From: an uncultured Nitrososphaeraceae archaeon
GTDB taxonomy: Archaea > Thermoproteota > Nitrososphaeria > Nitrososphaerales > Nitrososphaeraceae
Length of the DNA stretch: 64,000 bases
Reading direction: 5' to 3'
Assembly: GCA_963837175.1 (NCBI GenBank)
Contig: CAWIMJ010000017.1
Span: forward strand, 1-64,000
The notes under the pieces are model-generated. The model saw nothing but the letters and a program-made list of their open reading frames with translations, had not been told where the DNA came from and did no database searches. The position numbers and the translations under genes were made by a program. Positions 26,486 through 62,865 of this stretch are shown here, one piece after another (the first letter of the stretch is position 1; the number at the start of each line of letters is the position of its first letter).

Positions 26486-26548
26486 CTAAAATAACAAAAA
26501 TCATCAGAACCCTTATACATGCAGGGACCTAATCCCACTGAACCCCGC
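26486..26548 (+). repeat. ~60-bp dispersed repeat ending in a tRNA-3'-like sequence (second copy 61487-61549)
   Basis: ATCATCAGAACCCTTATACATGCAGGGACCTAATCCCACTGAACC vs ATCATCAGGACCCGTGTATATGCAGGGACCTAATCCCACCGAACC. Confidence 0.85.
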
Positions 26549-26894
26549 TCTTGACTATATTAATTTGAGACCTAAAATCATGTCAAATATGGTTCACAAA
26601 CCATTGACCCACTAAGTACGTGGATTCATATACCTTGGTTAAGCAAACTCCGGTGTACAGAAGTTGTGATAAAGCTATTTTGCCTGAACGGGAAACTATT
26701 AGATCAATGTAACATTCAATATCCTGAGGAGATATCACGCGACTGCTACCTGCATGCGATATTGTGTACTAGAAATACACTTTATATAATTTGTTCCTGT
26801 TCCATGGTCTTGTGAAAAGAGAAAAGGATCATGCATTGATTAGAAGTATAGCTTATGGAACACTGCTTTTTCGGCGGCAAGAAGGAGAAAAACA

Positions 26895-27698
26895 ATGACT
26901 GACCACAAGATTGGAACACGTGAAGAGTGGCTTGCGGCCCGGCTGGAGCTGCTCAAGGAAGAGAAGGCGCTGACACGGCGTAGCGACGAACTGGCGCAGC
27001 GGCGGCAGAGGCTGCCTTGGGTTCGAATTGACAAGGAGTACCGTTTTGAGACCGACGAGGGCATGGCGTCTCTTGCCGATCTGTTCAGAGGACGTTCGCA
27101 GCTTCTCATCTATCACTTCATGTTCGGCCCCGAATACAGAGGCGGCTGCCCGGCATGCTCTGCGATCGCAGACGGCTTTAACGGCTTTGCCGTGCACCTT
27201 GAGCACCACGACGTCGCGATGGTCGCGGTCTCACGTGCCCCAATCGCCGCGCTCCAGGCCTACAAGCGCCGCATGGGCTGGACGTTCACGTGGGCCTCGT
27301 CGCTGAATAGCGATTTCAACTACGACTTCAACACCTCGTTTACCGAGGAACAGCAGCGCTCCGGCAGCATCGACTACAACTACAGCACGCTCGGCACGAC
27401 ATCCGACTCGGAGGGCGGCTCAAAGGGCCGTCAAGACCGGATTCGAGCGCGCCTCGACTTTTCAGGCGATTTCGCGGCCATGACCGGCACCGACGTCCCC
27501 ACCTACACCCGCGAGGCGCCGGGCATGAGCGCGTTCGCACTCTCCGAAGGCGTCATCTACCACACATACTCCACCTACGCGCGCGGCCTCGACGCGCTCT
27601 GGGGAATGTACCAGTGGCTCGACCGGGCGCCGAATGGGCGGAACGAAACGGGGCCGTGGTTTCGGCGGCACGACGAGTACATACAAGATTCTCGATAG
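26895..27698 (+). CDS. DUF899 family thioredoxin-like protein, bacterial-type
   Basis: TREEWLAARLELL.EEK, LADLF.GRSQLLIYHFMFGP, CPACS, YHTYSTYARG; markedly GC-rich. Confidence 0.92.
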   Translation: MTDHKIGTREEWLAARLELLKEEKALTRRSDELAQRRQRLPWVRIDKEYRFETDEGMASLADLFRGRSQLLIYHFMFGPEYRGGCPACSAIADGFNGFAVHLEHHDVAMVAVSRAPIAALQAYKRRMGWTFTWASSLNSDFNYDFNTSFTEEQQRSGSIDYNYSTLGTTSDSEGGSKGRQDRIRARLDFSGDFAAMTGTDVPTYTREAPGMSAFALSEGVIYHTYSTYARGLDALWGMYQWLDRAPNGRNETGPWFRRHDEYIQDSR

Positions 27699-28054
27699 CG
27701 GTCGCTTCAATTTTTGGCAGTCAAGGAGCCGACGCTTTAATGTAACAAACTAAACTCCTTTCTTTTGTTATTATGAATGCGTTACTAATTCAATATTAAC
27801 AAATTGCTGAGCGTGAAATCGCTTGCGATAATGCAAGTCTTGTATGGTTATAGTCCTCTAAATGGTGGTGGAGGAGGTGGTCACGGTCATCCAATAGGAT
27901 AATACTCTTTAACATAAAGATCTTCTAAAACCATTTGATATCTTGGACTTCAAACTCCACTTTTCTTTCTTATCCTCTCTGTCTTCTTTACACTTCTGTC
28001 ATAATCAAAATATTAACAAAATTGCTTCGATTTCTGGCTATCGTACATTAATCA

Positions 28055-28414
28055 TCATTTTAGAAATCCAATAGTAAATCCAGCTGACATACTACCTGTG
28101 AAAGGAATACCAAAACTAGTCATTGCTAATAATGAGGAGGCTGTTGCAGCATGACCATCGCCGCTACTTTGAATGTGTATAATTGTATTTGCAAGTGTTG
28201 TAATAGAACCTTCAGCCACTGTTTGAAGTTTATTCCAGTTTATTATAGCTATCTGATGATATTGTAGGTATGCTAATCCAGCTAAGAACAAACCTACTAT
28301 TACACCTACTAATTTGATTACTTTCTTCACAGCATATCCAACTAGAATACCTACAAAGAAACCACCACCCATAGTAGCTGCAGTTGGTCCTAAACTCTCA
28401 ACAATACTATTCAT
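28055..28414 (-). CDS. FUN14 family membrane protein
   Basis: GGGFFVGILVGYAVKKV.K..GVIVGLFLAGLAYLQY..I..INW. Confidence 0.85.
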   Translation of the reverse strand: MNSIVESLGPTAATMGGGFFVGILVGYAVKKVIKLVGVIVGLFLAGLAYLQYHQIAIINWNKLQTVAEGSITTLANTIIHIQSSGDGHAATASSLLAMTSFGIPFTGSMSAGFTIGFLK

Positions 28415-28770
28415 ATTTTAGATGCAGCTCCTTATTTTGGTTATCGTCATTATGTAATGGCTACTACTACTACTTTGATAGCCCCTGTAGTGCTATAGTC
28501 CTGTATTTGGTAACGTAGACAGAAATGAATATCCAAGCTATGAAATGAAAACTCGTACCAGCATATCTTATGCGTACAAGATCTTCTATATCTAGTAGAG
28601 TACCAAAGGTTTTGATAACAATTTGTCTCTGTTGTAGCATATAATCTATTTTCTCTACAAGAGCTATAGCTTTTGTAGTAGACTTTTCTATCCAATCTTA
28701 TGTAGATTTATAGTCAACATAACTTCAGCAGCATGTTTAGCTTATTCCTCTCTCCCTCACTGTCTCTTTA

Positions 28771-29040
28771 GTGCTTCAAGTCTTATTTTGGATGATAAAT
28801 GACAGCATCTTATTGAACCCAAACGAATCACCACGACCATCACCATCAGTACAATCAACACTACCATTAAGATCACTACAAGAGATATTACAGAATAGAG
28901 TAATACAGAAGAAAAGGGAGATGCATCCGTCCCATAATAAAGTATATTTAGAAAGTCTGCGGATAGAGATAGAAACACTTCAATGGGTATTGGCCCAAAT
29001 ACTTATGCCACTGCGGCAATCAACAGCTACCAAGAGTTAA
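28771..29040 (+). CDS. Small hypothetical protein (EIETLxWVL motif)
   Basis: Short helical ORF; a degenerate relative lies at ~461-570 on the minus strand. Confidence 0.45.
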   Translation: MLQVLFWMINDSILLNPNESPRPSPSVQSTLPLRSLQEILQNRVIQKKREMHPSHNKVYLESLRIEIETLQWVLAQILMPLRQSTATKS

Positions 29041-29085
29041 GAGCACATCTAGGGCCTTATAATGATGTCAAATTTGTCTCACATA

Positions 29086-30058
29086 CCTCTGGGCCCGTAT
29101 CAATCTTGTCCCTTAATTTAACCTAGCTATTGCAATTTAATGAAAATACATTTTAAATGTAATTATGAAGAGAAAGATAAGAATCTACAAAGTTTGATAT
29201 CGAGGACCCGTTTAGTCTGGAAAGAATCTCTTGTGAAATAGAATTGACTTTTGGTAAACTCATATAAACGTCAAAACTCATAAGAAATATTCAGGATATT
29301 TACAATGAATTAACGAAGAGATTGATAGAATAATATTATAAGACGAGATGAAGACGGTTGATTGATTGATTGTCATTTATCTAAATAACAGACGTAAATA
29401 TTCCTTCAGGAATAGTATTAATAACTTCTACTATCACTATATTAGCATTTAAAATCGAATATACTACAATTTATACCTGATGAGAATACCGATATATGCA
29501 GCACGCTCGAACGTGTTTGCTCACCAGCAACAAGGTCAAGCCATTCCATTTATAGTACAAAACACCACCATGTCTACACAAGATCCATTATCTGGTCATG
29601 AAACCACATCAAGCTGTAATAGCAGCTCCACGAATAGAAGATGGCAAGATTTATTCTGGTGTGATTACATTCACTACAAGCTATCCAGTCGAAGTAGTTG
29701 TGTACATGGATATACTCCTTCCCAAATACCTGACCAGACACATGGCGAACCATTAAATGCTCCATTTGGTAATGGAAAGGTTGCTATCTCATTGATGAAG
29801 TTCACAGATTCACCCATTAATGTAGGTTCATTTGCATTTACAGGTAACGCATTTGCTTTCCAAACATTGGATGGAAAACCATTTACTGTAACATATACCA
29901 TCGACGCTGAAGTAAAATCTCTGACACCCCAATAACTATTATTATTGATTATCAATATTTTTTTCTTTTCTTTTCTTTTGATAATGGAATTTGCCAGTCA
30001 TTACAATTGACTAAGAAGCATCCTAAATAAAGGGACAAGATTGTCACGGGCTCAGAGG
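29086..30058. repeat. Segment bounded by 35-bp inverted repeats (29086-29120 / 30024-30058)
   Basis: Reverse complement of left arm TAAATTAAGGGACAAGATTGATACGGGCCCAGAGG vs right arm TAAATAAAGGGACAAGATTGTCACGGGCTCAGAGG (4 mismatches). Confidence 0.85.
29480..29935 (+). pseudogene. Probably secreted hypothetical protein, internally frameshifted
   Basis: QDPLSGHE then an alternative frame HQAVIAAP.IEDGKIYSGVITFTTSYPVEVV, returning to HGY...GSFAFTGNA.AF...DGKPFTVTYT. Confidence 0.5.
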
Positions 30059-30272
30059 GATGGAAATTAAAATTCATTTGAATCCTTTTTCCAAGGTTTC
30101 TCTGAAAAATAGAAGATAGTTTAATTATATCGGCTCAGCAGGATTTGAGTCTTGCTAATAGTGATCCTTTCTGCATATATCATCAGAGAGACTTTTAAAG
30201 ATCCTCAAAAGAGCAAAAGCAATGTCAATCACGCATCATGTTATGGCTATAAATTATAAGGTTAGATATTTT

Positions 30273-31589
30273 TTATGATTCATTAACTGAACTTTCTATT
30301 CTTAAATTATGTTCCTTCTCCCATTCATAACTTTGAGTATCCTTATCTTTAGCAACAATCCAAAAATCATAATTTCCACCAATTCTGTCTCCTGCTTTAT
30401 TAAGTTTTATTTTCCCTGATATTCCATCAAATGATTCTGCAGTCTCAACAAGGATTTCTTTAAATGATTTGGTTAAATTTTCATTATTATCATGGTTCAA
30501 GGTACTATTTTTATCAAGGCTTAACGAGGCTATCCAATAAGAATCATAAGCTAGTGCAGGATATGTTATTGAACTTACCTCATGTAATTGTTTTTCTAGT
30601 ACTTCTTTCAGATCATGAGATTTCTTTGACTCACTATCTATTGAATATAAAGGATTAGAAAGATTTACTTTCATTGCAAATGATGCTGAATCAACATTCT
30701 TTGTTATCTGATGATTTTGTGCTATTTTATCACTGCCGTACCACCTTACTTTCCCTAGGTCTTCATAAAGGGTGGATTGGATTAAAATAGGTGTTATCTC
30801 ATCAAAAGATATTACATATACACCTACAGAATTAGCACCATATTTTTTTACTGCATCAGAGACTATTGCATTTAATTTTTCTAATGCTTGATTCCACATT
30901 AAGAAATTTATCCTATGTAAACTGGTGGCAAATTTGCCTGTATATGGTTTATAATTAATACCTTCTTCTACTTCTCCTCCTAGTTTTTCAAAGTGAGATT
31001 TAGTAGATTTATAGAGCCCATTTCCATATATGCCACCTCTCCAAATCGGAACAATAACTTTTATACCGTCACTAATCATTCTTTCTGCAACTATTTTTCC
31101 TTGGTTTGTATCATCAGGGACTAATCGAAAAAGATTGTCTCCTTTGATAGAAAGTAATGGCGAAGTACTGGAGTAACTAATAAGGATGATGTTATTAGCA
31201 TTTGCATATTCTCTGACAGCGTTAACTGTAGCACCGAATGCAGGTCCTACAATGATTTTTGCACCATTTTCATGCAATTTTTTTATTGCTACGAGACTCT
31301 CTTCTGGACTTGTCTTTGAATCTGCCATTAATAAAGTGAAGTGAGATGAAGAAGAATTAATGTCTTCAAAATGTTTGTTTACATCATATTCAGCTTTTTC
31401 TAATGCTACCTTGATAGGTTTACCGATAGAGGAAAAGGAACCAGTCAGTGGTAAAATGGCGCCAACAACAAATTCCTTTCTACCGTCCTCATTATACTTT
31501 GATAAGAGTGGAGCATTAGAAGTCTTTTTTATGAAAAAATCTGTTATTTTCATCACCGCTGAAAACATTTGTAAAATATAAAGCAACAA
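30273..31589 (-). CDS. Type-1 periplasmic binding protein (branched-chain amino acid ABC-SBP-like)
   Basis: VGAILPLTGSFSSIG, ADSKTSPEE, IIVGP, LISYSSTSP.LS, LFRLVPDD, AYDS.WI, FDGISG.I.LN.AGDR. Confidence 0.88.
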   Translation of the reverse strand: MLLYILQMFSAVMKITDFFIKKTSNAPLLSKYNEDGRKEFVVGAILPLTGSFSSIGKPIKVALEKAEYDVNKHFEDINSSSSHFTLLMADSKTSPEESLVAIKKLHENGAKIIVGPAFGATVNAVREYANANNIILISYSSTSPLLSIKGDNLFRLVPDDTNQGKIVAERMISDGIKVIVPIWRGGIYGNGLYKSTKSHFEKLGGEVEEGINYKPYTGKFATSLHRINFLMWNQALEKLNAIVSDAVKKYGANSVGVYVISFDEITPILIQSTLYEDLGKVRWYGSDKIAQNHQITKNVDSASFAMKVNLSNPLYSIDSESKKSHDLKEVLEKQLHEVSSITYPALAYDSYWIASLSLDKNSTLNHDNNENLTKSFKEILVETAESFDGISGKIKLNKAGDRIGGNYDFWIVAKDKDTQSYEWEKEHNLRIESSVNES

Positions 31590-32451
31590 ATATTAGAAAG
31601 GATACTAATATAATGGAACCAAACAGAACCCTTTTGGAAGTACCACTTCTTATCTTTCTATGAACCTTAAAAATGAGATCCTTTGACTGCCATTTGATAA
31701 AATATCTAAGATACCATATCAGACCTCCTGCAATTAATAAATAATGTGCAGACAATAATAAAGTAGACATCCATATTTGTTCAACAAATGCAGTTAGAAC
31801 AATAATTGCAAACCAACTATCTCCAATAACTATTGCTAAAAATCCAATTAATTCACAGATCCAAGGTATAAAGTGATGTTTTTCATTCTTTATTCCAAGG
31901 AGGATCATCAATGCAAGAACAGTTAGAATAGAATTTAACGTAGGATATGCTATGGTAACAATAAAGAGCATAAGACCTCTGAAATTCGATAATTCCGAAA
32001 GTTCTAGAGTCAAGTTTAATATGTATACCAAAAATAAACCTGTACCAGAGATTATCAAAAAAAGAAATTTTTTATTTACAATGTGATGAAGGTTCCTATA
32101 TATTGCTATCAATCTATATATCAGAAATCCATATGCAGACAATAAGAATAAATCTGCTAAAGAAGGTACAGGTGAGACAATATCAAGTACTAGCTCATAA
32201 TATGCCCAGATCATATTCGCTATAAGCCAGAAAACAAGGCCCAGTGCTAGAAAAATATTAGTTTTATCTGCTTCATTACTATCTTTGTCCTTAAAGAGAA
32301 TCATTGCAGAAAGCCCTGCAGCAATAAGTGAATTTATTATCAATATCCAATTTGAATAGATTAGTTTACTCTCTGAGTCAGCTAAAATAATAATAGAATT
32401 TCCTATAACTATGGTGCTAATTACACCTAAAAAAAAATATAGCGGCTTCAA
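31516..32451 (-). CDS. Multi-pass membrane domain, likely the N-terminal half of a fusion with the binding protein
   Basis: About nine TM helices, W.IANMIWAYYE...PVPSLADLF.L.AY, AYP; overlaps the next ORF at A/T runs. Confidence 0.7.
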   Translation of the reverse strand: MKPLYFFLGVISTIVIGNSIIILADSESKLIYSNWILIINSLIAAGLSAMILFKDKDSNEADKTNIFLALGLVFWLIANMIWAYYELVLDIVSPVPSLADLFLLSAYGFLIYRLIAIYRNLHHIVNKKFLFLIISGTGLFLVYILNLTLELSELSNFRGLMLFIVTIAYPTLNSILTVLALMILLGIKNEKHHFIPWICELIGFLAIVIGDSWFAIIVLTAFVEQIWMSTLLLSAHYLLIAGGLIWYLRYFIKWQSKDLIFKVHRKIRSGTSKRVLFGSIILVSFLIFVALYFTNVFSGDENNRFFHKKDF

Positions 32452-33125
32452 TTATTCTCTTCTCTTTATGATTATTAGTATTAATTATAAATCCTTTTTT
32501 TACTAAAACAATTTTTCGATAGTACATAAAAATATATAAAATCCCTTCGTAGTATTGTTAATAGCTATTAGCATGAATTTTCAGTGAATAAAGATTGTTT
32601 GTATCTGTAAACCTTCATTTTATATTGAAGTTCTTTCATAATGTAGTTTTATATATTGTAATCCATCAATTTGAATTAAAGATGAAGTTGTAATGGTGGT
32701 TTTATATTTAATATTTCCAGAAACAAATAATGTTATGACTGTAAAGTACTCCTCAATTCTTTGAGATAATGTTATTTATTGTTATTATATACATACATAC
32801 ATGAATTGAATATTTTCTCTATCGTATAACTTTCTCTAAAATCAAACGACAGAGCCAAGAGCTATAGATCTATTTAAAATAAGTTTCTGCCGGATTTGCT
32901 AATGGATTAGTACTTATTTTTAGATTTGTTATTGAGATATTGGAATAAAGTAAAAATTCATTCAAAAATGGGTCCAGAGGGGTGCAATTGAAAATTCATT
33001 TGAATCGCATTATATTCATTTTTTTCTATTTGTTGATTCTCAAATCCTCTTTAACGTAATCATTTAGTAGATAGTTAATCAAGCTATGGGTTTATAGTTA
33101 AGTATAAACAATGATTATTATTTCC

Positions 33126-34103
33126 CTATACTTTAGTAATTACTTTTGATTTAAATTCCTTTAGAATTTGCTCATCTAATTTAATAAAATGAATTACAAA
33201 ATGACTAACACCAATGTTGGTGTATTCGTTTAATCCTTTAACTATCTTTTCAGGTGTTCCTACTGTAATTCCGCCAACAAGATATTGAATATATTCTTGA
33301 ACTGTTTTATCTTTTCTTTTATATTCCATCAGTGTCTGGTAAACCTTCTCTTCTGATTCTATTAATATACATGGTAGTACTACTGAGTATTGTATTTCAT
33401 TATAGTTTCTTCCAATAGAGTTACAATATTCCTTAACTAGCAGAATTTTTCTTTTCATTTCTTGGGGTGAACCATAGAACAGGTTGTATCTGTCTGCATG
33501 CTTTGCTACAACCTTTAGCATATACTTTTCGCCTTCTCCTCCCACCATTATTGTCGGATAAGGATTTTGAATGGGTTTGGGATTACAAATCACATCTTTC
33601 ACTTTGAAATAATGGCCCTCAAAAGAAGATCTTTTCTTTGTCCACATTGCTTTGATAATATTTAATGATTCATCTAATTGCTTGATTCGAATGATATTTG
33701 ATGGAAAGTCATAGCCATATGCTATATACTCTTGCTCATACCATCCTGCACCTATTCCTAATTCTGCTCGACCATTGCTTATAACATCCAAAGTTGAGAG
33801 CATCTTTGCTAGCAATGCGGGATTACGATAAGAGTTACATCCAACTATCTCACCTATCTTTATCTTGTCTGTAATTGCTGCTATTGCAGATAATAATGTA
33901 AAGCATTCAAAAATATTCTTTTCCAAGTCATCCTTATAATGAGGGATAAGATGATCGTATGCATAAAGAGAATCAAAGCCAAGATTATCAGCTGCTATCG
34001 CAATGGATTTTGAGAATTCATATTGTTTAGCTGGGTTATTTTCTTGTTCTAATGGAAGGTCTCCACCTCGCCATCCTTGAGGTATAGTTAATCCAAATTG
34101 CAA
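33126..34103 (-). CDS. LLM-class (probably F420-dependent) oxidoreductase
   Basis: GFDSL..YDH, ECFTLLSAIA, CNSYRNPALLAKM.STLDVISNGR.ELGIGAGW, PKPIQ.P.P.IMVGG.GEK. Confidence 0.92.
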   Translation of the reverse strand: MQFGLTIPQGWRGGDLPLEQENNPAKQYEFSKSIAIAADNLGFDSLYAYDHLIPHYKDDLEKNIFECFTLLSAIAAITDKIKIGEIVGCNSYRNPALLAKMLSTLDVISNGRAELGIGAGWYEQEYIAYGYDFPSNIIRIKQLDESLNIIKAMWTKKRSSFEGHYFKVKDVICNPKPIQNPYPTIMVGGEGEKYMLKVVAKHADRYNLFYGSPQEMKRKILLVKEYCNSIGRNYNEIQYSVVLPCILIESEEKVYQTLMEYKRKDKTVQEYIQYLVGGITVGTPEKIVKGLNEYTNIGVSHFVIHFIKLDEQILKEFKSKVITKV

Positions 34104-34165
34104 TTTCTATATCTCTTTGGATATCATAATCTACTATCTACTGCTAATGACATAACAGATATTTC

Positions 34166-34714
34166 CTAGATATTTGTATCCAATTGCTTGCCATACTTAT
34201 CATAGTAAACTAACTTACTGAGGGAAATTCTTTCAAATCTTTCAGGTTCTTCATCTGGATAACCTATACAAATAATTCCTATTGGTTTAACAAACTCAGG
34301 TAGTTTAAGTATTGCAGACACTTTATTGTCTTCAAATGCACCTACAAAACAAGTGCCAATTCCCTCATTTACAGCTGTCAGTAAAATAAGCATAGAAGCA
34401 AAAGCACCATCTATTATACTATAAAACTGCTTTCCCCGATTACCATAACGACTAATTGAGCGAGAGGTATTTGAGCATACCACAATCAGGACAGGAGCTT
34501 TTTCTACATATTCTTGGCTCACAGCTGCCTTTCTCAATTTCTTCTTTATTGCAAGATCTTTTATTATGATAAATTCCTGAACTTGTGTATGACCTGCACT
34601 AGGGGCTCGATGTGCATTTCTAATTAATTTCATTATTATTTTATCTGAGATTTGCTTGCCTTTATCATATTCTCTTACCATTTTTCTTTTTCTGATAACT
34701 TCATCAAAGTCCAT
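34166..34714 (-). CDS. Nitroreductase family protein
   Basis: IRKRK.VR.Y, A.RAPSAG..Q, IDGAFA...LL.AV.EG.G.CFVGAF, PIGIICIGYP. Confidence 0.92.
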   Translation of the reverse strand: MDFDEVIRKRKMVREYDKGKQISDKIIMKLIRNAHRAPSAGHTQVQEFIIIKDLAIKKKLRKAAVSQEYVEKAPVLIVVCSNTSRSISRYGNRGKQFYSIIDGAFASMLILLTAVNEGIGTCFVGAFEDNKVSAILKLPEFVKPIGIICIGYPDEEPERFERISLSKLVYYDKYGKQLDTNI

Positions 34715-35044
34715 GATAATTATTATTATCAGACATATTTAGGCAATCAAACAAGATAAAGTAACAACACTCAATGTTAAATTTGTAGTATACATTAGTC
34801 CTATATTTTCTAGAAGATTAAGTGTCTGGAGTCGAATTGGATTCAGAATAGAAGTGAAGTTGTAAATGGGGCCCAGAGGGGGTTGAAACAAATTTAACAT
34901 GATTTTATAGCCGAGAATATATGTCCTGCATTTTATAATCCCCATCACTGTTAGATTGACAATTAGGAGATATAACCCTCCCTGTGTGCTTGGTGCTTCG
35001 ATTCTTAATAGTAGTAGAAAAGAGGTTGTATGTGATGATAGTAT

Positions 35045-38986: not shown

Positions 38987-39025
38987 CGGGCCCGGAGGGA
39001 TTTGAGTCTTCCTGGTAGGAGGGTT
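38987..39025 (-). repeat. 39-bp att-like direct repeat, copy 1 (tRNA-Arg 3' end plus tail)
   Basis: CGGGCCCGGAGGGATTTGAGTCTTCCTGGTAGGAGGGTT; 2 mismatches to 41342-41380. Confidence 0.9.
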
Positions 39026-41341: not shown

Positions 41342-41380
41342 CGGGCTTGGAGGGATTTGAGTCTTCCTGGTAGGAGGGTT
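41342..41380 (-). repeat. 39-bp att-like direct repeat, copy 2
   Basis: CGGGCTTGGAGGGATTTGAGTCTTCCTGGTAGGAGGGTT; first 19 bp match tRNA-Arg 49722-49740 with one mismatch. Confidence 0.9.
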
Positions 41381-44088: not shown

Positions 44089-44428
44089 GGTATTATCTTC
44101 CTTTATTCATAATAACCATTCCAACAGAACACAAAGTCATACATTCATCGATACTACAACATATTTAATCAATGTTGACTGGATCTATTTTGTTCGTGTA
44201 GTATGAAAAATAGCTTTATTTTTTTAATAAATATGTATTCACATTTGATTTTCTAAGATGATTATTTTTTCTCATTTTATAATAGTAATCAATTTGTGGA
44301 TAAATATTGCTATTAGGGTCCGGTGGTATCAAGACCCTTCTCCTTTATAGGTTGAATAACTATTCTGTGATCATTGCAAAACTTTACTCCAACAGTGATA
44401 GTAGATGGACTTCCACGTACTGTAATAA

Positions 44429-49312: not shown

Positions 49313-49721
49313 TAGTCTGATAACTAAATTAAAAGATATAAAAAATTTATGTACCGTGTTAATGGTACTCATTCCATAGTATCTATCATATTTTTTGTTT
49401 GTAGCATAGTTATTATTATTATTATTATTATTGCAACGAAGAATGCATATGAGTTTATACATATATACTGATGTGAAATTTTTCACTACGCTAAATACCT
49501 AGTAACTGTTGTTAGGTGACGAAATAAGACAGCGCAAAACTAGTTTAATAGAGACATCAACATAATAGCTCAGATACGAGAGAATAAGACTAAAAACAAT
49601 TTTAAGTTCCTTGATTGAAAGTGATCAAACAAGAGTAATTCCACTTTTCAATGGAGGGTTTCCAACTTTTTTTATTTCACCATTTATTTATGAAACCCAC
49701 TAAAAAGCACTGATATCGGAG

Positions 49722-49826
49722 CGGGCTCGGAGGGATTTGAACCCTCGACCTGACGCTTAGGAGGCGTCTGCGCTATCCATTTTACGCCTATTTGTCTTGT
49801 TTTTTAATAGTCTGCGCTACGAGCCC
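49722..49826 (-). tRNA. tRNA-Arg(CCT) with ~30-nt non-canonical intron in the D-loop
   Basis: GGGCTCG/CGAGCCC acceptor, GCGC D-stem, GACGC-CTCCTAA-GCGTC anticodon arm, GAGGGTTCAAATCCCTC T-arm; AT-rich insert ~49781-49810. Confidence 0.9.
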
Positions 49827-53129: not shown

Positions 53130-54209
53130 TGCATTATGCCTGCCGTATCAAATTACCAATTAATAGCCGATTATATATTATCTGCACTTTGGAACAATAT
53201 ACTTCGGAATAACTCATAACTGTGATATTTTTAATAAGCAAATTATAAACTCGCTATTTGGTATCATCAATAATATTACAGGAATTTTCCTATAAATTAG
53301 TTTTGCATACAGTTATTTTTTCATATTTATGATATTATATTCAACTTAATACTCGATAGCAAGCCTCTTTTCTGATCTGTTTATCTGATAATTCAGTTAT
53401 ATATTCTCTACATAGATATGCTATTGGTTTAGTATAATTAGGCATTAGTAGAGTTGTTTGAAGACCCTTATTTATAAGGATACTTGCCCAACAATGCCTT
53501 TTTCATATGCCCTACGGGCAAGCCGAAGATTTGAATCACACAAATCTCAATGACTATTGTCATTGATCTATCCGGAGTACGGAGACCAAATCTGATATCC
53601 GATACGGAGAATTTTTCTTGTCTAGACTGTCTGGCTTTATTATCCTATATCTGGTAGAATATTTTTTCTTCTACCCATTGCCTTGTCTTACTGTATTATA
53701 GTAACTAAATTAGCAAAATAATAACTAAATTAGCAAAAGAATGGGAATTTGAAATAATACTTATAGACATCAGAGGAGTTATTTTTGAACTAGACATTAT
53801 TGGATTTCCTCTTTACTATATGATATCATCTAGAAAAATGTACCTCATACAAGTTATCAAATTAATAATATGCAATTTATCTTTAGGTCTTCTATATCAC
53901 CAACAAAATTACTTATAAACTTCAACCTTTAATTAGCAACCTTTTGCAATGAATTAAATTTGAGAGTAATTAAGATATTTCTTGGCAATTTCCTTCTATC
54001 CTACTTAGTTAGAGACAGAATCATGATGTCGATGACCCTGATATGGGGAGCAGATGTAATAATAGTATGAAATTGGTTAGAAATTATGTGATGACTTCGA
54101 GTATTCTTTTGGACTATTTGAAAGGCCTGCTCGAGTTTGAATTAAAGGTAGTTTTAACTTTATCGGCGAATATATATTTAGGTCATTGGAAATTTCAAAT
54201 CAAATACCT

Positions 54210-54284
54210 GGGCCGGTGGTCTAGCTTGGTTAAGATACCGCCTTGACATGGCGGGGGTCGTTGGTTCGAATCCGACCCGGCCCA
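54210..54284 (+). tRNA. tRNA-Val(GAC)
   Basis: GGGCCGG/CCGGCCC acceptor, CCGCC-TTGACAT-GGCGG anticodon arm, GTTCGAATC T-loop; TATA-like TATATATTTA upstream. Confidence 0.97.
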
Positions 54285-54336
54285 TTTTGATAACGATGCT
54301 TATTTACGGCCCACTTCAATAATATATTAGAACAAT

Positions 54337-54733
54337 TTGGCATTATCAACACAGTATGAAGAAGAAAGTCATCCATTGTCTGTTTTTCTTTATGCTTTAA
54401 AGGCTCCAGAAACAAGGAGGCAGTATCCAAGATGATTAAAAGTACTTTTGGACTTCCTCAAGATTAAGGGTAATTTGGAACAGCAATCCAAAGAATTTTT
54501 AGAAAAAGCAAAACAAAATCCGCAATGGGCTCAGAATTCTATTATGCAATTTATATCCCTTCAAAAGGAAAGAGCAAGGAAGGGTGAAATATTATACTCT
54601 ACTATTGTCAATTATTACAAAGCGACAAAACTATTTGTAGAAATGAACAGTGATGCTCCGATTATTATTTGGAAGAAGAATAACACGTGGTATTCCAAGC
54701 GGAAGGAAAGCAGCAAATGATAGAGCTCCTACT
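54337..54733 (+). pseudogene. Thaumarchaeal tyrosine integrase, N-terminal remnant
   Basis: FLYALKAPETRRQYPR*LK...Q.ERA.KGEI..STI.NYYKA.KLF.EMN...WKKITRGIP.GRKAANDRAPT; internal TGA at 54433, frameshift ~54680, catalytic domain absent. Confidence 0.8.
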
Positions 54734-55936
54734 GGATGGTATAAAGGATGAAAAGGATGAGTAGCAATCACCGTGCACTTCAAAATAATAAGAAATGAAT
54801 TGCTATTCAAGATGGCTGATAATAAAGAAGCAGTTATCGGTATATCCGAAGCCTTAGCTTCTAACTATAATAAACTCCCAGATGAATTGTTAAGAAAGTT
54901 AGAGGATAGAGAGAAAGCTAGAAGACACCAGAGAAAAAGCTAATTATATTAACACTTTGTATTGAATAGTTTTCAAATAGCTTTAAAAGATTATTTGGAA
55001 GGAAATATCTAAAATTATTTGAATGCTATTAATTAAAATAAAAGCTTAAACTTAACCTATTCTTATACTAATTCAGAATCCTTTTCGTGAATTGATATCA
55101 TTACGGAAACCTCCGAGCCCGTCAACCAATTGGACTCATATTTAGATATGAAGTCTCTAGATCAATAAAACATTATTAATTACTATATCTAATTAGCAAT
55201 AGTAAATTTACTTGTTTGTTGGATTGTTACTATTACGTACATAATCTAAACACCAAACTTCAGGCTTTGGTATTCCATCAATATTTCTTCTTACCTCTAT
55301 CTAAACAAATAGATTCGAACCACCATTGTTACATGTTCCATCATAACTTGTTGTTGCCATCTTCAATGATATTAGCAAAATAAATTATAAAATATTTTTA
55401 AGGATTAATGAATAATGATTTTATTTATTCACTGTCAGAATCTCCTATTATGTTAGCCTCTTTTTTCGATTCTCTGATGGTTTTATTAGAAGCATTTTCA
55501 AGTGAGGTTTCAATCTCTTTCTTTTTAGCATCTACTTCTTGTTGTTTTTTATTAATTCGATTATTTTCCTCAGTCAGTATTCAATATAATATTAATCATA
55601 TCAACAATATCATATATTAACATCATATAAAGCAAATGAAAAAATAGTATTAGTATTAAGTGAATTTTCTTCTAATCATTATCGTAAAGATTGGACTATC
55701 TCGGAAATGGTGCCAATAAAAAGAATACTAGACACCATACTATATTTCAATAATAAAAACTTTTAATATTATGTTACCGAATCCTGTTATAATGAGAAAT
55801 TGAAGACCTTTAAACTTATAGATAGTTGATTTAATAAACTAATAATTAAGATTATTTTATTATTAGACTTTTAACTTATTTTTATTTAGTAACCATAATA
55901 CTAGACAGTATTCAATTAATATTAATAATTATTCTT

Positions 55937-58440: not shown

Positions 58441-58495
58441 ACTTACAACGTGTGACTGCTGACACATGTGACAGAGTCAGTCACACGCTGTAAGT
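58441..58495. repeat. 55-bp palindrome/hairpin
   Basis: ACTTACAACGTGTGACTG ... CAGTCACACGCTGTAAGT, 17 of 18 arm positions complementary. Confidence 0.85.
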
Positions 58496-58505
58496 AAATT
58501 GCACC

Positions 58506-58757
58506 CTAAGCAAGACGTCTATCAAATGTTCTTCTGCATGGTATTTTGGATAGTCCACATCCTTTCATTACCTTTTTGTTATATGATAGATCCATTGCAA
58601 GGTATTCATGTAATGCTCTGTTCGAATCTAATCTAAACCAGATACGTACTACAAAACATCTCAAAATAACAGTGGAAGAATAGACATATGGTCTGCCACA
58701 TTTCTTATTTTTTCTCCTATCATGTTTCGACCACGATATCAAGCCAATCAAATACAA
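58506..58757 (-). mobile_element. Transposase N-terminal fragment (IS4/IS5-like superfamily)
   Basis: GRPYVYS..VIL.CFVV.IW.RL.SNRALH.YL...CGL..IP.RRTFDRRL then stop; DDE domain absent. Confidence 0.65.
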
Positions 58758-58998
58758 AATACTAATTAGAATAGATCTAGATCTCTTATGTGCTAGTTTG
58801 TTGGCGAGGATGATTGTCTTTCACCAAAATATCATACTCCAATAGACTAGCTTTATTGCTTATGAAAATGAAATAATTATGACCCAGCCTCAATTAGTTA
58901 CTTCTTGTATAGTAATTCTCTTCACTGTGTATTTAGAGGCCATGTTGTAGCACACCTAAGTCTAGCTCTAATCGAATATATCCTTATTTTGGGCTTTT

Positions 58999-60717
58999 AT
59001 GATAATAACTTATCATCTTAATGTTGAAATACATCCTCCAATATACATAATCATGTTAAAGTACGATGGCACTAATGCTTTTAGATTGATACGTTCTAAA
59101 ATAGGCTTAAAAATAGGAATATTAATTGTTATTCAAATTATTTTCATTATTAGCAGTTTTAGTGTACTCTCTTACTATGAATCACAGGGAACTTATTTAG
59201 GAAATTCAATAAATATTGCAGGAAAGAATCGATACCTCACCTCTAATCTCATGCTTCATATGTCAGAATATTTTTTAGCGGATAGTAGTGATGTTTCTAA
59301 AGTCGATCATATATCTAAAATCAACTCTGCAGTACAGCAATTGGAATCAAACATCTTGGCATTAAGACAAGGTGGAAAGGTATCAGATGTAGATCTAAAA
59401 CCGTTGCCATTAGAATTTTTTGATGATTGGAATATAATTTATCAGAAATGGGTTTTACTAAAAACAATCTTAACAAACAATATAATCAAACCAAATGAAA
59501 AAATTAATCCAACAGCAGCAACAGCAACATCAACAACAACAGAACCAATAGACAAAGCTATAAAAACAACATTAGAAACAAGAGCATTATCTTTAGTAGA
59601 TTCATCAAATGCATTGGTTACAAAGTTAGGAGAGTATGCAAGAAATAGTTCGCAGAACTCAATGTTTCTGCAAACAATTTTTGCGATTTTAAATATTGCA
59701 GTTGCTGCTGTTGTGCTTTACCTTGTTATGAAGATATTAAAACCAATATTTGCTCTAACTACTGCAACGTCTGAAGTAAGGAGAGGAAATCTTGAAGTAT
59801 CAGTTAAAAGCAGAGGTAATGATGAACTTTCAGTTCTAAGTGAGTCCTTCAATTCTATGGTGAACTCTATAAAGAACTATATCAAAAAACAAAATGAATT
59901 AACAAAGAAACTGGAAAATGCAAACGAAGAACTAAAACATAAAGATCAATTAAAGGACGAATTTATAAATGTGGCGGCACATGAACTGCGAACCCCTATA
60001 CAGCCTATACTTACACTATCTGAATTCCTGATATGCAGAAAGAGAGAAACAAACAATAGTAATAACAAGGCCATTATAAATATAGAAAAAGAAGAGGAAT
60101 TTCTAGATGTTATTTCTAGAAACGCAAAAAGATTGCGGCAACTAACAGAAGATATATTAGATGTTTCAAAAATTGAAAGTGGATCTCTAATTTTAAATAA
60201 AGAAAAATTTGATATAAATGAAAAAATATCAAATATTATAAAAGATGTAGAAAAGCAAATCTCCAATTCTAATAAATTAAAAATATTATTTGTAGAACCA
60301 ACGGAGGCTATATTTGTAGAAGCAGATAAAGTAAGAATATATCAAGTTATTACAAATCTACTAAATAATGCTATAAAATTCACTAAAGGGGAAACTATAT
60401 CGGTATCTGCAAAAGTGACACAACAACAAAAAGATAAGAATAAAGAAAAAGAAGGAAGAGATTATAGTGATCGTGATGATGGTAGTAGCACTAGACAAGT
60501 TATAGTAAGTGTAAAAGATGGTGGAATAGGAATAGATCCTGAAATTCAACCAAGGCTATTTACAAAGTTTACTACTAAATCACAGACAGGCGGTACTGGT
60601 TTAGGATTATTTATTTCCAAGAATATAATCGAAAAACATGATGGCAAAATATGGGCTGAAAATAGTGCTGATGGAAAAGGAGCTACCTTTAGTTTTTGTT
60701 TACCAATCAAAAGATGA
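58999..60717 (+). CDS. Sensor histidine kinase with NarX/PilJ-like sensor and HAMP domain
   Basis: TM1, SINIAGKNRYL, TM2, HAMP (DELSVLSESFNSMV), H-box AAHELRTPIQPI, N-box NLLNNAIKF, DGGIGI, GTGLGLFI. Confidence 0.92.
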   Translation: MIITYHLNVEIHPPIYIIMLKYDGTNAFRLIRSKIGLKIGILIVIQIIFIISSFSVLSYYESQGTYLGNSINIAGKNRYLTSNLMLHMSEYFLADSSDVSKVDHISKINSAVQQLESNILALRQGGKVSDVDLKPLPLEFFDDWNIIYQKWVLLKTILTNNIIKPNEKINPTAATATSTTTEPIDKAIKTTLETRALSLVDSSNALVTKLGEYARNSSQNSMFLQTIFAILNIAVAAVVLYLVMKILKPIFALTTATSEVRRGNLEVSVKSRGNDELSVLSESFNSMVNSIKNYIKKQNELTKKLENANEELKHKDQLKDEFINVAAHELRTPIQPILTLSEFLICRKRETNNSNNKAIINIEKEEEFLDVISRNAKRLRQLTEDILDVSKIESGSLILNKEKFDINEKISNIIKDVEKQISNSNKLKILFVEPTEAIFVEADKVRIYQVITNLLNNAIKFTKGETISVSAKVTQQQKDKNKEKEGRDYSDRDDGSSTRQVIVSVKDGGIGIDPEIQPRLFTKFTTKSQTGGTGLGLFISKNIIEKHDGKIWAENSADGKGATFSFCLPIKR

Positions 60718-61051
60718 ATAACAAGAAATTCTCCTACTTTTGCAAAAAAGATGTTATATAGATTTCTGAGATATTTAGTTCACCTTCGTCCTCAGTCTTT
60801 GTATTCTGAGAATGTATTTCTATAGATAGGATGAATACTGGATGGCAAAATAGAGTCAATTCTGTCCTACATCCCATCGAACCCCATTATCCTCTATTAC
60901 ATGTATACGGATTAATATTTTAGCAATAAAAGATAATTAAAGAATTAATCGAAAAGTTATACTTAAAATAATAGTCAACCAACCAGTCAGCCTAATTTCT
61001 GATTGAATGAAATTAATACTTCTTATTCTTATTCTTCTTCTTAGTCAAAAA

Positions 61052-61312
61052 CTACGTTTCTTTACTCCCTTTTTTCCCTGCTGTTTTTCTAGAATCTAGG
61101 ATTTCTTTTACAATAGGTTTTAACTGTTCAATATTTTCAGAAATCTTTGTTTTCCTCAATACATCAACTGGTATTCCACTCTTCCTTGCAATTCTGATAT
61201 TATTTAGTCCTGATTCATTTAGCTCAGGCTTTGAAAAACCTCTACCTTTTCTGACTAACTCTATATTTCTAATTGGACGTTTGACAATTGGCTTGTTTAT
61301 TTGCACTTTCAT
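61052..61312 (-). CDS. rpl13e: Ribosomal protein L13e (archaeal short form)
   Basis: PIVK...RKGRGFS..EL.E.GL...ARK.GIPVD..RKT...ENIE.LK. Confidence 0.8.
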   Translation of the reverse strand: MKVQINKPIVKRPIRNIELVRKGRGFSKPELNESGLNNIRIARKSGIPVDVLRKTKISENIEQLKPIVKEILDSRKTAGKKGSKET

Positions 61313-61486
61313 ATTGTATTAATTGTACATGAGTAAATAAATGATTATCAGAATTTGTGTTCAACATTAGAGTGAATTGATATCATTATTGCGATTTATT
61401 CAAATAAGCGATTCAGAAGACTTAAGCAATTTCAGTCGAAATGAGTCTGATTGATTAATGAGGAAATATTGACATGAAAGAAATAA

Positions 61487-61549
61487 CTAAATAACAGGAA
61501 ATCATCAGGACCCGTGTATATGCAGGGACCTAATCCCACCGAACCTGCA
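61487..61549 (+). repeat. Second copy of the ~60-bp dispersed repeat (see 26486-26548)
   Basis: Shared core TGCAGGGACCTAATCCCAC. Confidence 0.85.
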
Positions 61550-61660
61550 TAAATCTTCTCTTTATCTTAGTAACATACTTCTAAGAACGGAAATCGACGC
61601 TACTTTTGGTTGTTGCCTTTCTATTAAAGATCTAATGTATATACTCTTCCTATTTTTGTC

Positions 61661-62459
61661 TTAGCTTAAGAATGTACGTAATTTTTCATATACCAATGCA
61701 GTCCTCTCAACAAATGGTGCATGACCCGTATCTTTTATTATTAGATTTTGAGTTTCGGATCCTGAGAGATTCTGTTTGAACTTCTCACAATATTCAATTG
61801 GTATTAGACTATCCTTTTCACCCCATATTAACAAACAAGGAACATCTTGAATCTGCTGGAATCCTTCTAGTTCAATATGTGTTCTTGTACTGTTCTCATA
61901 GGCTCTTTTAAACGCATTCCTTGCGCCTTCTTTTATAATTGTTTCAACAAATTTGTCAACTACGATAGGAGGCATGAAGGAAGGGTGTGCATATATAGCA
62001 CCTAATACTTTTTTCAATTTCTTGTATCTTAATACTGGCTCCATTTCCATTGCAGCATCCAAATACTGTTCCAGCAATGGGGTGGGTTTTTCAAGCAAGC
62101 CTGAGGAATCTATCAATACAATCTTTTCTATCGTCCTTCTATTCTCTATGGCAAATTGTGCTGCTATATAGCCTCCTAATGAGTGGCCCACTATACTTAT
62201 TTTCTCATTTTCCCCAATCTTAATTTCTTCTTTAAGGAAATTAGCAATGAATTTGCTAAATCCTTTGATTGTATAGTCTCCCTCCACTGGCATATCGCTT
62301 TCGCCAAAGCCTATCAAATCAACATTTATAGTATGAAAATAGTTTGACAATGCAGACTGGAATATCCCTCCAAGCAAGAGACGATGCTCCAAGGCCATGA
62401 ACAAATAGTACATGCTTGTTATTTGTGTTCTTTCCGTATTCGGTATATTTAATTGGCAT
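61661..62459 (-). pseudogene. Alpha/beta-fold hydrolase, frameshift near N-terminus
   Basis: [18 protein letters not shown] in one frame; [35 protein letters not shown] in ORF 61661-62413. Confidence 0.85.
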
Positions 62460-62865
62460 TCTCAAAGAATACCAAAATTTGTGTATTTTCCTTATTATAA
62501 TTATCTATATAGTTGTGGTGAAAAATGATGATTGATATTATTTATGTAAAGACTGTTACTTTATGCCTTTCTATAACTCTTGTTAGATCAGCAACGATTA
62601 ATTGGTAGCGTCATCATTATATCGACATGAATCCCAGCAAACAAAGACTACGAACTGAGGGTTCGAATCCGACCCGGCCCATTGAACTTTTTTCATGAAA
62701 TAACTAAATAGAATGAACCCCTTTACCACAAGGGATATAATCCCGCCCAGTCCACTTAACCAAAGGCAAGTAAAAAGCAGTCTATTTTTAGATTCAAATT
62801 AGAAAAAAAGTTGACCTTGCGGTGATACATTTGAATTCCAAAAAGAGATCAATAGTTGAGCATAC

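Follow-up and report, generated by a model that had tools for sequence, protein, structure and literature searches.

The accessory region of an uncultured Nitrososphaeraceae archaeon raises the question of why short copies of tRNA 3' ends recur between its genes. The window analysed here is the whole stretch of 64,000 nucleotides (contig CAWIMJ010000017.1, positions 1 to 64,000). A preliminary description listed 14 such places, ascribed many of them to a tRNA-Arg near 49722, and proposed that an integron-like system shuffles small integrase-less cassettes between them. The copies appear to be seams between small swappable gene modules stacked behind two tRNA genes of this soil ammonia-oxidising archaeon. 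They probably result from one element after another integrating at att sites derived from tRNAs, with the integrases later lost and the att-flanked remnants still moving site-specifically. The first interpretation is supported in part, for the partition of the region, the breakpoints and the recurrence of units, and not for a dedicated integron-like system.

As the reference, we used the 15-nt 3' cores of the tRNAs of this genome, composed of the last 2 nt of the T-loop, the 3' strands of the T-stem and acceptor, and the discriminator. Of the 14 listed places, 13 agree with the final 15 nt of a tRNA at 12 to 15 positions, confirming the initial observation. The cores come from tRNA-Arg(CCT), another tRNA-Arg type (Arg-variant, the 3' end of another tRNA-Arg in members of the family), Lys(CTT), Val(GAC) and Ala(CGC); the attribution to tRNA-Arg thus stands for about half of the sites and fails for the rest. 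On the minus strand, Arg cores are located at 30047..30061, 38987..39001 and 41342..41356 (14/15 each), Arg-variant cores at 32969..32983 and 34868..34882 (12/15 each) and a Lys-like core, ATACCACCGGACCCT, at 44315..44329 (12/15; 13/15 in the G003 copy). The plus strand carries a Lys(CTT)-like core at 26532 (13/15), an Arg-variant core at 29083..29097 (14/15), an Arg-like core, AAACCTCCGAGCCCG, at 55107..55121 (13/15), Lys cores at 60871 (13/15) and 61533 (14/15), and exact 3'-end copies of Val(GAC) at 62660..62682 (23/23) and of Ala(CGC) at 62739..62755 (17/17, to the gene at C2:29810 and C16:165501). The remaining place, 30131 (minus strand), is weak (about 10/15), its one support being an arm resembling those of 38987 and 41342. 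All four pairs said to share flanks (38987/41342, 30047/32969, 29086/30058 inverted and 26486/61487) are real. These comparisons support the view that the sites are att-like sequences derived from tRNA 3' ends. Each site appears to combine an arm of 30-45 nt with a core of 14-15 nt that matches a tRNA 3' end fully or almost fully: conservation among 52 A-type arms ends at the 3' edge of the core, and upstream and downstream arm families combine in many ways around the same core.

The minus-strand array is headed by tRNA-Arg(CCT) (49720..49826, core ATCCCTCCGAGCCCG) and extends leftwards to about 30047. The gene is real, as judged from Rfam (RF00005, 37.5 bits at 49730-49788) and its sequence (5' GGGCTCG, anticodon CCT); it was missed by ARAGORN, and its D-arm region apparently holds an insertion or an intron. 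Directly after its core lies the arm CTCCGATATCAGTGCTTTTTAGTGGGT (49695..49721, minus strand), also found after tRNA-Lys at C7 and after other cores. Arms of this family are followed by integrase N-terminal coding sequence in G002:C210 and G005:C15, in the latter after an internal Arg-variant core; no integrase is left after the arm in the window. The tRNA-Arg(CCT) counterpart in G002 bears an integrase fragment and wholly different cargo. Leftwards, a decayed core about 45 nt upstream of the 44315 core marks a break in homology with G003:C6. The 41342 core has a C-like arm (41357-41385), shared by the 38987 core, and an arm of the integrase-proximal family comes next, at 41312-41341; G003:C239 is 95% identical as far as this core and aligns poorly past it. 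A 98% block, 39012-39529, common to G000:C30 and C31, stops about 25 nt before the 38987 core. The 34868 core has an A-like arm and then a decayed Val-like core, and the block common to the window and G005:C17 stops at 34903. The arm GATTCAAATGAATTTTCAATTGC (32984-33007) accompanies the 32969 core, which separates units Y and X; the 30047 core terminates X and has GGATTCAAATGAATTTTAATTTCC (30062-30085) as its arm. The 29083 core is inverted relative to 30047, with GT(A/G)(T/A)CAATCTTGTCCCTT inward of both, and its downstream arm is also present at G000:C25:844. At 26486..26546 (plus strand), the C-type arm known from 61487 precedes the Lys-like core, with a decayed A-arm at 26430-26444.

The plus-strand array runs rightwards from tRNA-Val(GAC) (54209..54285; ARAGORN; Rfam 61.4 bits). 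This gene forms attL of an 8.4-kb Val-type element, attR being the 23-nt copy of its 3' end. Directly downstream of the gene is the remnant of a tyrosine integrase, its N-terminal part only (54382..54733, plus strand), detected when the N part of the C7 integrase served as tblastn query (44% over 90 aa and 74% over 19 aa, E 4e-19). Positions 54263-54685 are 84% identical to G000:C22:13583-13999, which begins at another Val core copy. An A-type arm with the Lys-like core ATCCCATCGAACCCC occupies 60840..60885 (plus strand); here the G000:C36 block stops at the core and the G004:C464 block begins at the arm. A C-type arm with the Lys core ATCCCACCGAACCTG follows at 61487..61547 (plus strand), and homology to G004:C464 stops right after this core. 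The Ala(CGC) copy is preceded by a C-type arm (62683-62738), and an integrase adjoins the tRNA-Ala(CGC) gene (C2:28777). Cores of different tRNA origin occur within one array, which nesting explains only by assumption.

Orientation follows the heads of the arrays. The minus-strand tRNA-Arg has all seven minus-strand sites downstream of it, and the plus-strand tRNA-Val likewise has all five plus-strand sites between 55107 and 62740; the only inverted sites are 26532 and 29083 (both plus). Neighbouring sites within 10 kb are co-oriented in 48 of 55 pairs, with a median spacing of about 2.5 kb. The sites are largely intergenic: 10 of 109 fall inside ORFs of at least 100 aa, which occupy 53% of the genome.

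The sites partition the accessory region as the preliminary description proposed: blocks common to congeners end at sites, and homology breaks exactly at cores, although the relatives are fragmented assemblies in which many contigs end at site positions. None of the 150 matches listed extends more than 40 nt across 29083, 30047, 32969, 34868, 38987 or 41342; alignments in the adjacent non-array region, 15995-23999, run for 5.6-6.9 kb. Within the genome, a duplicated block begins or ends no more than 20 nt from 35 of the 168 sites (random mean 6; shifted controls 3-14). No recognisable core was found at the edges of the alpha/beta-hydrolase block (45131-46745), at the left edge of the histidine-kinase block (about 58890) or at either edge of the DUF899 block in the window.

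Small units of 0.7-3 kb that lack an integrase are found again in other contexts with their ends unchanged. Unit X (30062..32968, minus strand) encodes, by Pfam, a substrate-binding protein (ANF_receptor/Peripla_BP_6) and a 311-aa membrane protein, hydrophobic throughout its translation, and no recombinase. Among the matches listed, X is present in G000:C1, G005:C17, G006:C46, G006:C245, G003:C150 and G002; junctions were aligned for G005, G006 and G000:C1, the copies in G006:C245, G003:C150 and G002 being taken from the match table. The aligned junctions break exactly at the core, and each end of X is found in five distinct contexts, with unlike sequence immediately beyond both ends. Unit Y (32984..34867, minus strand; luciferase-like monooxygenase and nitroreductase, no recombinase, by Pfam) shares 91% identity with G005:C17:68825-70765, where its neighbours to left and right are not those of the window. 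In G005, G006 and G000:C1, homology at the ends of X and Y stops precisely at ATCCCTCTGGGCCC, beyond which the sequences differ. The 0.65-kb unit between two Lys-type sites (60886..61532, L13e-like fragment) is 90% identical to G004:C464, and its flanks differ on both sides.

On the preferred reading, the sites would be attachment-site scars left by tyrosine integrases recombining at tRNA 3' ends. In support, tblastn places remnants of one integrase family beside tRNA-Val (in the window), tRNA-Lys, tRNA-Met, tRNA-Ile, a 'caat' tRNA and several cores. Successive elements would have inserted to the left of tRNA-Arg(CCT) and to the right of tRNA-Val(GAC), as well as into core copies that older elements already contained; deletion or breakage of the integrase genes would then leave arrays of att-flanked units of one to three genes each. 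Because the core is kept at both ends, such units may still be movable by an integrase encoded elsewhere. The presumed agent, an integrase from a neighbouring or incoming element, would act in trans or in cis on units lacking their own, excising, inserting, duplicating or inverting them, perhaps to this day, and X and Y would for this reason appear in new contexts and order in related species.

The same remnants could be read as decay alone, which we consider rather unlikely: each site would mark one end of an element that formerly carried an integrase and had integrated at a tRNA gene or at an att copy already in place, the units would be immobile deletion remnants, and shared units would be inherited, with neighbours altered by later insertions and deletions. 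The integrase fragments at array heads and beside cores agree with such a history, as do the integrase-proximal-family arms lacking an integrase at 49695 and 41312. The argument that the density of sites exceeds one att per element is weakened by the remnants after tRNA-Val and, in G002, tRNA-Arg; since they stand at array heads, much of the density is attributable to ordinary serial integration followed by decay. Furthermore, of 2095 blocks duplicated within the genome, only one has sites at all four of its ends, and X is 89-95% identical to its congeneric copies, close to core identity (84-91%). Against decay alone, X keeps identical core-to-core ends in several contexts while the outside sequence differs, and an X-X tandem junction remnant exists in the genome itself. 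X and Y are adjacent here and 7 kb apart in opposite order in G005. The DUF899 block (26577..27872, plus strand, 54.6% G+C) is 98% identical to two G005:C36 copies with different flanks, in contrast to 84-87% for syntenic core DNA, an excess that suggests recent transfer.

As for present activity, tblastn coordinates in the 91%-complete assembly revealed no intact member of the integrase family that is linked to the Lys, Arg and Val cores, the loci being fragmentary or in more than one reading frame, and the arrays may therefore be inert in this genome. Excised circles, a predicted product of shuffling, did not emerge: two joints in metagenome contigs that go back on the unit are matched by the tandem X-X remnant, and one metagenome contig with the junction pattern is explained by a tandem remnant or a neighbouring unit with the same arm.

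The arrays resemble the accretion of streptococcal cis-mobilizable elements (CIMEs), which integrate at a tRNA 3' end, lose their integration genes and keep attL and attR, form tandem accretions with newer elements and can be moved by a neighbour's integrase (PMC5704250, citing Pavlovic 2004 and Bellanger 2011). Here this bacterial scheme would be miniaturised and amplified, with mobilisation presumed: the units are far smaller (0.7-3 kb, 1-3 genes), the sites far more numerous (109-168 in this one genome) and spread over many contigs, with cores of several tRNAs per array, and the host is archaeal. Thaumarchaeal integrated elements, including cryptic ones, likewise have short att sites (median 17 bp), 39 of 68 at tRNA 3' ends, in the survey of Krupovic et al. 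2019 (PMC6563490), which refers to arrays from site re-use as a known feature of tyrosine-recombinase elements. Those elements bear integrases and span 2.6-140 kb, unlike the small integrase-less units here; the sections of PMC6563490 consulted describe neither integrase-less cassettes nor dozens of dispersed copies of one tRNA end, and the word Nitrosocosmicus is absent from its main text. In Dehalococcoides, many islands share one small-RNA gene, ssrA; 16 of 31 carry an integration module, the histories of cargo and module are discordant, and strains differ in large part through these islands (McMurdie et al. 2011, PMC3146451). They differ in having a single target (tmRNA), a size of about 12 kb and a bacterial host, and genome-wide dispersal of sites is not reported in the abstract of PMC3146451.

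A dedicated integron-like platform, in which a specialised integrase at a fixed primary site recruits promoterless cassettes each with a tRNA-like site, is improbable. Short co-oriented units in arrays (the 48 of 55 pairs), site families alike within a genome (16 F-type sites, in five of seven congeners) and GC-rich cargo resembling bacterial genes would suit it. The contig, however, contains no integrase catalytic-domain gene, the arrays begin at ordinary tRNA genes with remnants of ordinary element integrases, no attC-like features were seen in the sites on inspection, and genes run in the same or opposite direction as sites at 54 versus 42 and 43 versus 45. Integrons, including archaeal ones, also have short-unit arrays, mostly without an adjacent integrase, with foreign-looking cargo and sites alike within a genome (Ghaly et al., bioRxiv 10.1101/2022.02.06.479319), and the analogy holds for array form only. 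Here IntI, attI and attC-type sites were not found, the cores are tRNA ends, and genes are not co-oriented with sites. Recombinase-less modules bounded by short recombination sites in varying contexts would be shared with the pdif modules of Acinetobacter plasmids, from which the present sites differ in being tRNA-derived, mostly direct and chromosomal. The pdif modules are moved by host XerC/XerD, and their Xer sites are in inverted orientation.

A role at the RNA level, as 3' processing or termination signals like tRNA minihelices conserved for that function, is very improbable. Most sites are intergenic (99 of 109), T-loop, T-stem and acceptor sequence is retained, and several arms contain palindromes. 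Yet the sites show no strand coupling to neighbouring genes, Rfam finds only the two tRNA genes, the 5' acceptor strand is absent, A-arm variants (GAGTTG for GGGTGG) are uncompensated in the core, and homology breakpoints at cores would be left unexplained.

Chance, or an artefact of base composition when GC-rich words stand in AT-rich spacers, is conceivable for the shortest matches, as was cautioned earlier (here 30131, and 8347 and 62364, both inside genes), and has a negligible probability for the set as a whole, being refuted by the controls. Site frequency exceeds the shuffled background that had been suggested for comparison: CCCTCCGAGCCCG at up to 2 mismatches has seven matches in the window against 0.06 expected, and none of 100 shuffles reached seven. 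Genome-wide, 15-nt tRNA cores outside tRNA genes (up to 2 mismatches) number 199 against 33 for reversed controls, the excess lying mainly in Lys(CTT) (64 versus 0), Arg(CCT) (23 versus 0), Ala(CGC) and Val(GAC) (10 versus 0 each); in a set of 61 genomes, each gave 0-1 control hits. Copies of one Lys core number 30-38 in four congeners and 13 in a fifth; the other genera of the family have 0-13. Contig C17 holds nine of the 168 sites at up to 2 mismatches, all within the 36 kb described here, where they average about 2.5 per 10 kb (genome mean 0.44).

When the 14 places noted in the preliminary description were compared with the 3'-terminal 15 nt of all tRNAs detected in the studied genome (G000), 13 of them matched tRNA ends (hereafter cores) at 12-15 of 15 positions, with five tRNA ends as sources; place 30131 gave a weak match. 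The derivation of the sites from tRNA 3' ends is thus upheld, and it extends far wider than the window. The resemblance to tRNA-Arg, noted for many of the places, holds for seven, where the core is of Arg(CCT) type (30047, 38987, 41342 and 55107) or of an Arg variant, ATCCCTCTGGGCCCG (29083, 32969 and 34868), but Lys, Val and Ala ends supply the others. In other family members this variant forms the 3' end of a further tRNA-Arg, whose gene is absent from the G000 assembly. Lys(CTT)-type cores, which differ from Arg cores at only 2 of 15 positions, are located at 26532, 44315, 60871 and 61533, an Ala(CGC) core, exact over 17 nt, is at 62739, and the tRNA-Val 3' end at 54263-54285 is repeated exactly (23/23) on the same strand at 62660-62682. 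The motif CCCTCCGAGCCCG was found seven times in the window with up to 2 mismatches, against 0.06 expected.

The window carries an intron-bearing tRNA gene (24867-24997, minus strand), the gene for tRNA-Arg(CCT) (49720-49826, minus strand; recognized by Rfam and by eye, missed by ARAGORN) and that for tRNA-Val(GAC) (54209-54285, plus strand). All seven minus-strand sites are located downstream of the minus-strand tRNA-Arg, and all five plus-strand sites from 55107 on are downstream of the plus-strand tRNA-Val; only the sites at 26532 and 29083 are inverted. Behind tRNA-Arg, seven co-oriented sites of Arg or Lys type are aligned in tandem between 30047 and 44315. The 0.95-kb segment 29098-30046 carries inverted Arg-type cores at both ends with the same arm, CAATCTTGTCCCTT, inward of each, a layout that would be expected after inversion between two cores.

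The G000 assembly (3.81 Mb in 58 contigs, 91% complete, about 33% G+C) encodes archaeal AmoA, indicating an ammonia-oxidising archaeon. It was scanned outside tRNA genes with 33 distinct 15-nt tRNA cores, the same cores reversed serving as the control. At up to 2 mismatches, 199 matches were obtained against 33 for the reversed cores, in agreement with an origin of the sites other than chance. The excess was concentrated in a few tRNAs, Lys(CTT) with 64 matches, Arg(CCT) with 23, Ala(CGC) with 10, Val(GAC) with 10, the tRNA at position 53034 of contig C7 with 9 and Met with 8, each against 0 reversed. Dropping some matches of other tRNAs (for example of Ala-GGC type) that lie in a repeated coding motif left 109 'active-core' sites. 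Ten of these are inside ORFs of at least 100 aa, which make up 53% of the genome. Neighbouring sites within 10 kb are mostly co-oriented (48 of 55 pairs), and the median distance between them is about 2.5 kb. In other genomes the Lys core, at up to 1 mismatch, was present in 38, 34, 31, 30 and 13 copies in five genomes of the genus and in 0-13 copies outside it (56 genomes from 17 further genera of the family); reversed controls gave 0-1 matches. The comparison includes one unpublished genome, G051, which bears on no conclusion.

The cores are accompanied by recurrent flanks, or arms. The upstream arm families include A (CTGGGTGGCAAAATAGAGTCAAWTCTGTCCTGC, 52 copies), B, C, D and F, and one downstream family, which has integrase coding sequence after it, also follows the true tRNA-Lys (C7) and tRNA-Arg genes. 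Upstream and downstream families combine in many ways around one and the same core, and one and the same arm family is found with Lys, Arg-variant, Val, Ala or Met cores. The 52 A-type sites are conserved up to the final base of the core, and directly beyond it the conservation drops to background level. Since the arms are variously recombined and conservation ends at the core edge, the site is, as read from these alignments, a 45-60-nt composite of arm and core, with sequences exchanged at the core. In a recurrent double site, an A arm continues into the Lys core only as far as its ninth nucleotide (ATYCCAYCG), after which come CATA and another A-like arm. Four loci of G000 (C16:141191, C22:11443, C52:61803 and C40:2598) have this join at the identical core position, and it could mark the crossover point or represent one composite family.

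Homology was searched for window positions 24000-43999 in 30 relatives and for 44000-63999 within the genus; the relatives named below are G001-G006. Two units, X (30062-32968, minus strand; ORFs for a substrate-binding protein and a membrane protein) and Y (32984-34867, minus strand; ORFs for a luciferase-like monooxygenase and a nitroreductase), have cores at both ends and are without integration genes. Copies of X with 86-95% identity are present in G000:C1, G005:C17, G006:C46, G006:C245, G003:C150 and G002. In the junctions aligned (G005, G006 and G000:C1), the homology ends exactly at ATCCCTCTGGGCCC on both sides, and beyond the ends each aligned copy continues into a different sequence. 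Five distinct contexts result for each end of X when the remnant of a tandem in G000:C8 and a single metagenome contig are included. Y is 91% identical to G005:C17:68825-70765, where it has other neighbours, and X and Y are 7 kb apart in G005 in reversed order. The 0.65-kb unit 60886-61532 likewise recurs in G004:C464 with other flanks.

Homology also breaks at sites 41342, 61533 and 44315, and sites 29083, 30047, 32969, 34868, 38987 and 41342 are crossed by none of the matches listed (150 of 301). Against G003 and G005, the non-array segment 15995-23999 aligned in unbroken runs of 5.6-6.9 kb. Within G000, 35 of 168 sites (cores at up to 2 mismatches) have the endpoint of a duplicated block of at least 300 bp within 20 nt, against a mean of 6 for random positions and 3-14 for shifted sites. 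Some block edges do not conform to this pattern: no clear core was detected at either edge of the alpha/beta-hydrolase block (45131-46745) or of the DUF899 block in the window, nor at the left edge of a histidine-kinase block, and the block common to the window and G000:C30 ends 25 nt short of core 38987. A search for duplicates running from core to core within the genome yielded one qualifying block of 2095, an internal tandem. A second X-like copy (G005:C17:76219-78778) is a gene-level paralogue, the ends of which are without sites.

The P-II gene (25321-25961) is 96.7% identical to that of G003:C106. Its left neighbour there matches G000:C13, and tRNA and hydrolase genes take that place in the window; because the left neighbours differ, the variable region probably starts at about 25.1-25.3 kb, to the left of the start at 26486 given in the preliminary description.

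Integrase loci in G000 number about 17 by tblastn and Pfam, against 109-168 sites. No match to PF00589, the integrase catalytic domain, was found by Pfam anywhere in C17, the contig of the window. Directly after tRNA-Val, at 54382-54733, only an N-terminal integrase remnant was detected by tblastn, with the C7 integrase beside tRNA-Lys as the query, and no integrase is located behind the tRNA-Arg of the window. A 170-aa ORF behind this tRNA was considered as a piece of integrase and discarded, with no Pfam match and no tblastn relative in the genome, and the 311-aa ORF of X, considered as a hidden recombinase, is a multi-pass membrane protein by sequence. Elsewhere in G000, integrase remnants adjoin tRNA-Met, tRNA-Ile, the tRNA at C7:53034 and several cores (tblastn). 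Wherever both halves of the C7-integrase family occur in G000, they occupy more than one reading frame, and so no intact copy of this family was seen in the assembly. In both near-full copies, at C7:2226-3481 and C7:51712-52924, the frame changes between the N- and the C-terminal part, which could reflect pseudogenes, assembly errors or a conserved frameshift; the integrase fragment at C15:15764-16429 keeps to a single frame.

In the relative G002, tRNA-Val, an 810-aa gene and tRNA-Arg still form one conserved block. Behind its tRNA-Arg are an integrase fragment, a sulfotransferase, an APS kinase, an Arg-like core and other genes, none of which is in the window. In G005:C15 the integrase-proximal arm and integrase sequence come after an internal Arg-variant core, indicating that internal cores serve as targets.

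The cassette-shuffling proposal is partly supported by these comparisons: recombination seams between small units are what the sites represent, and some integrase-less units moved as units. The system looks like the accretion and decay of ordinary tRNA-targeting elements at unusual density, and a separate machine of integron type is not supported. Elements would integrate serially at tRNA ends and internal cores, the integrase would decay after integration, and every core would be re-used. The closest mechanism, judged from the available part of PMC5704250, is streptococcal accretion with CIMEs: X and Y are att-flanked, lack integration genes and stand in tandem with co-oriented sites. The direct repeat of the tRNA-Val 3' end, with the tRNA orientation kept, is a trait of tRNA-targeting elements. 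Short att sites at tRNA 3' ends are described for integrated elements of thaumarchaea, and arrays are noted as known, in the accessible portion of PMC6563490; the elements covered there all bear an integrase and measure at least 2.6 kb, whereas the units of the window are integrase-less. A bacterial parallel is offered by the ssrA islands of Dehalococcoides, 15 of 31 being without an integration module according to the part of PMC3146451 available. In the literature searched (main texts, with few subscription journals), no description was found of integrase-less cassettes bounded by tRNA ends in these archaea.

A bolder reading, which we consider somewhat improbable, is that of a working platform for gene capture and shuffling. 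Recombinase-less units of 1-3 genes, with composite sites of about 45-60 nt, would be captured behind tRNA genes and at secondary cores. Element-borne tyrosine integrases, acting in trans, would reorder and duplicate these units, exchange them between species and load them with bacterial genes. Such a platform would be an archaeal counterpart of the integron in function, would have arisen independently and would be one of the forces behind the large accessory genome of this genus. True integrons, including archaeal ones, resemble the arrays of G000 in array form only, as far as the available part of 10.1101/2022.02.06.479319 describes them. Instead of an IntI gene and attI at the head, C17 is without a PF00589 match and the arrays begin at tRNA genes. 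In place of attC, the sites consist by inspection of an arm and a tRNA 3' core, and Rfam found tRNAs only. Unlike integron cassettes, the genes are not co-oriented with the sites (5'-side gene, 54 on the same and 42 on the opposite strand; 3'-side gene, 43 and 45), indicating no coupling. A MITE or insertion sequence was dismissed, the repeats being direct and always of the same tRNA-derived sequence, with arms that differ between the ends.

If accretion, decay and exchange at the cores hold as proposed, an abundant soil nitrifier would have much of its accessory genome arranged in small modules swapped at 15-nt seams. This would account for the different gene sets behind one tRNA gene in sister species, for the passage of GC-rich genes resembling bacterial ones from species to species and for the positions where assemblies of these genomes break. 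Cores of tRNA ends with known arms would provide a simple marker for mobile cargo in these archaea, and the system is a candidate for natural site-specific cassette exchange.

In 20 soil or rhizosphere sequencing runs from 10 studies, 61-78% of the words of 29000-38999 were present. Joints were examined in assembled (Logan) contigs of four soil runs from four studies. In two run contigs, 32968 or 32955 connects back to 30048, so that both ends of X meet through one core. The same junction is present in the genome as the X-X tandem remnant of G000:C8, and the joints therefore indicate tandem or circular X, not circles specifically. A scan of metagenomes for the junction pattern gave a single match (L017), with X beside a unit of the same arm type and no circle. 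The depth of X in the four runs is 2-4 times that of its neighbours, and 8 of the 64 ends of 32 listed pieces are within about 40 nt of a site. Other joints (35630 to 39404, 41572 to 39506, 40230 to 41736, 32803 to 39431 and 32086 to 29131) are not at recognised cores, and some of their sides are short. Among the viral contigs searched, none carried a core with the integrase-proximal arm. The bare Lys 15-mer was present in 84 viral contigs, and of 80 viral loci checked none had a nearby A, B, C, D, dn1 or dn2 arm and none was below 40% G+C. The single viral match to the T motif (L082, 55% G+C) looks like chance.

The DUF899 block (26577-27872) has 54.6% G+C in a genome of 33%, is 98% identical to two copies in G005:C36 (core DNA, 84-87%) and encodes a protein with 64-67% identity to plasmid homologues of rhizobia and the Burkholderia group; contig depth over the block, taken from the four soil runs, exceeds that of the DNA beside it by a factor of about 5-20. 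These features suggest a block recently acquired from bacteria and passed between species. The alpha/beta-hydrolase block (44-46% G+C) is 97% identical to G001:C72 and very high in soil-run depth. The 8 kb at 15995-23999 match three contigs of G005 (C13, C21 and C32) at 84-87%, suggesting triplication or a mixed-strain assembly in G005. Segments 10476-12814, 27940-29120, 37978-38966 and 58509-60902 have 18-24 partial copies elsewhere in G000, part of which represent a histidine-kinase gene family and the DDE-transposase fragment at 58506-58757.

At the tRNA-Arg(CCT) locus, the 5' acceptor strand GGGCTCG is more than 30 nt upstream of the Rfam match and TAGCGCAGAC is present twice, which together suggest an insertion or a non-canonical intron in the D-arm region. 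Just upstream of this gene, at 49916-50557, is a 642-bp fragment of a myo-inositol-1-phosphate synthase gene, the 99% identity of which to G000:C12:101062-101699 indicates a very recent internal partial gene copy.
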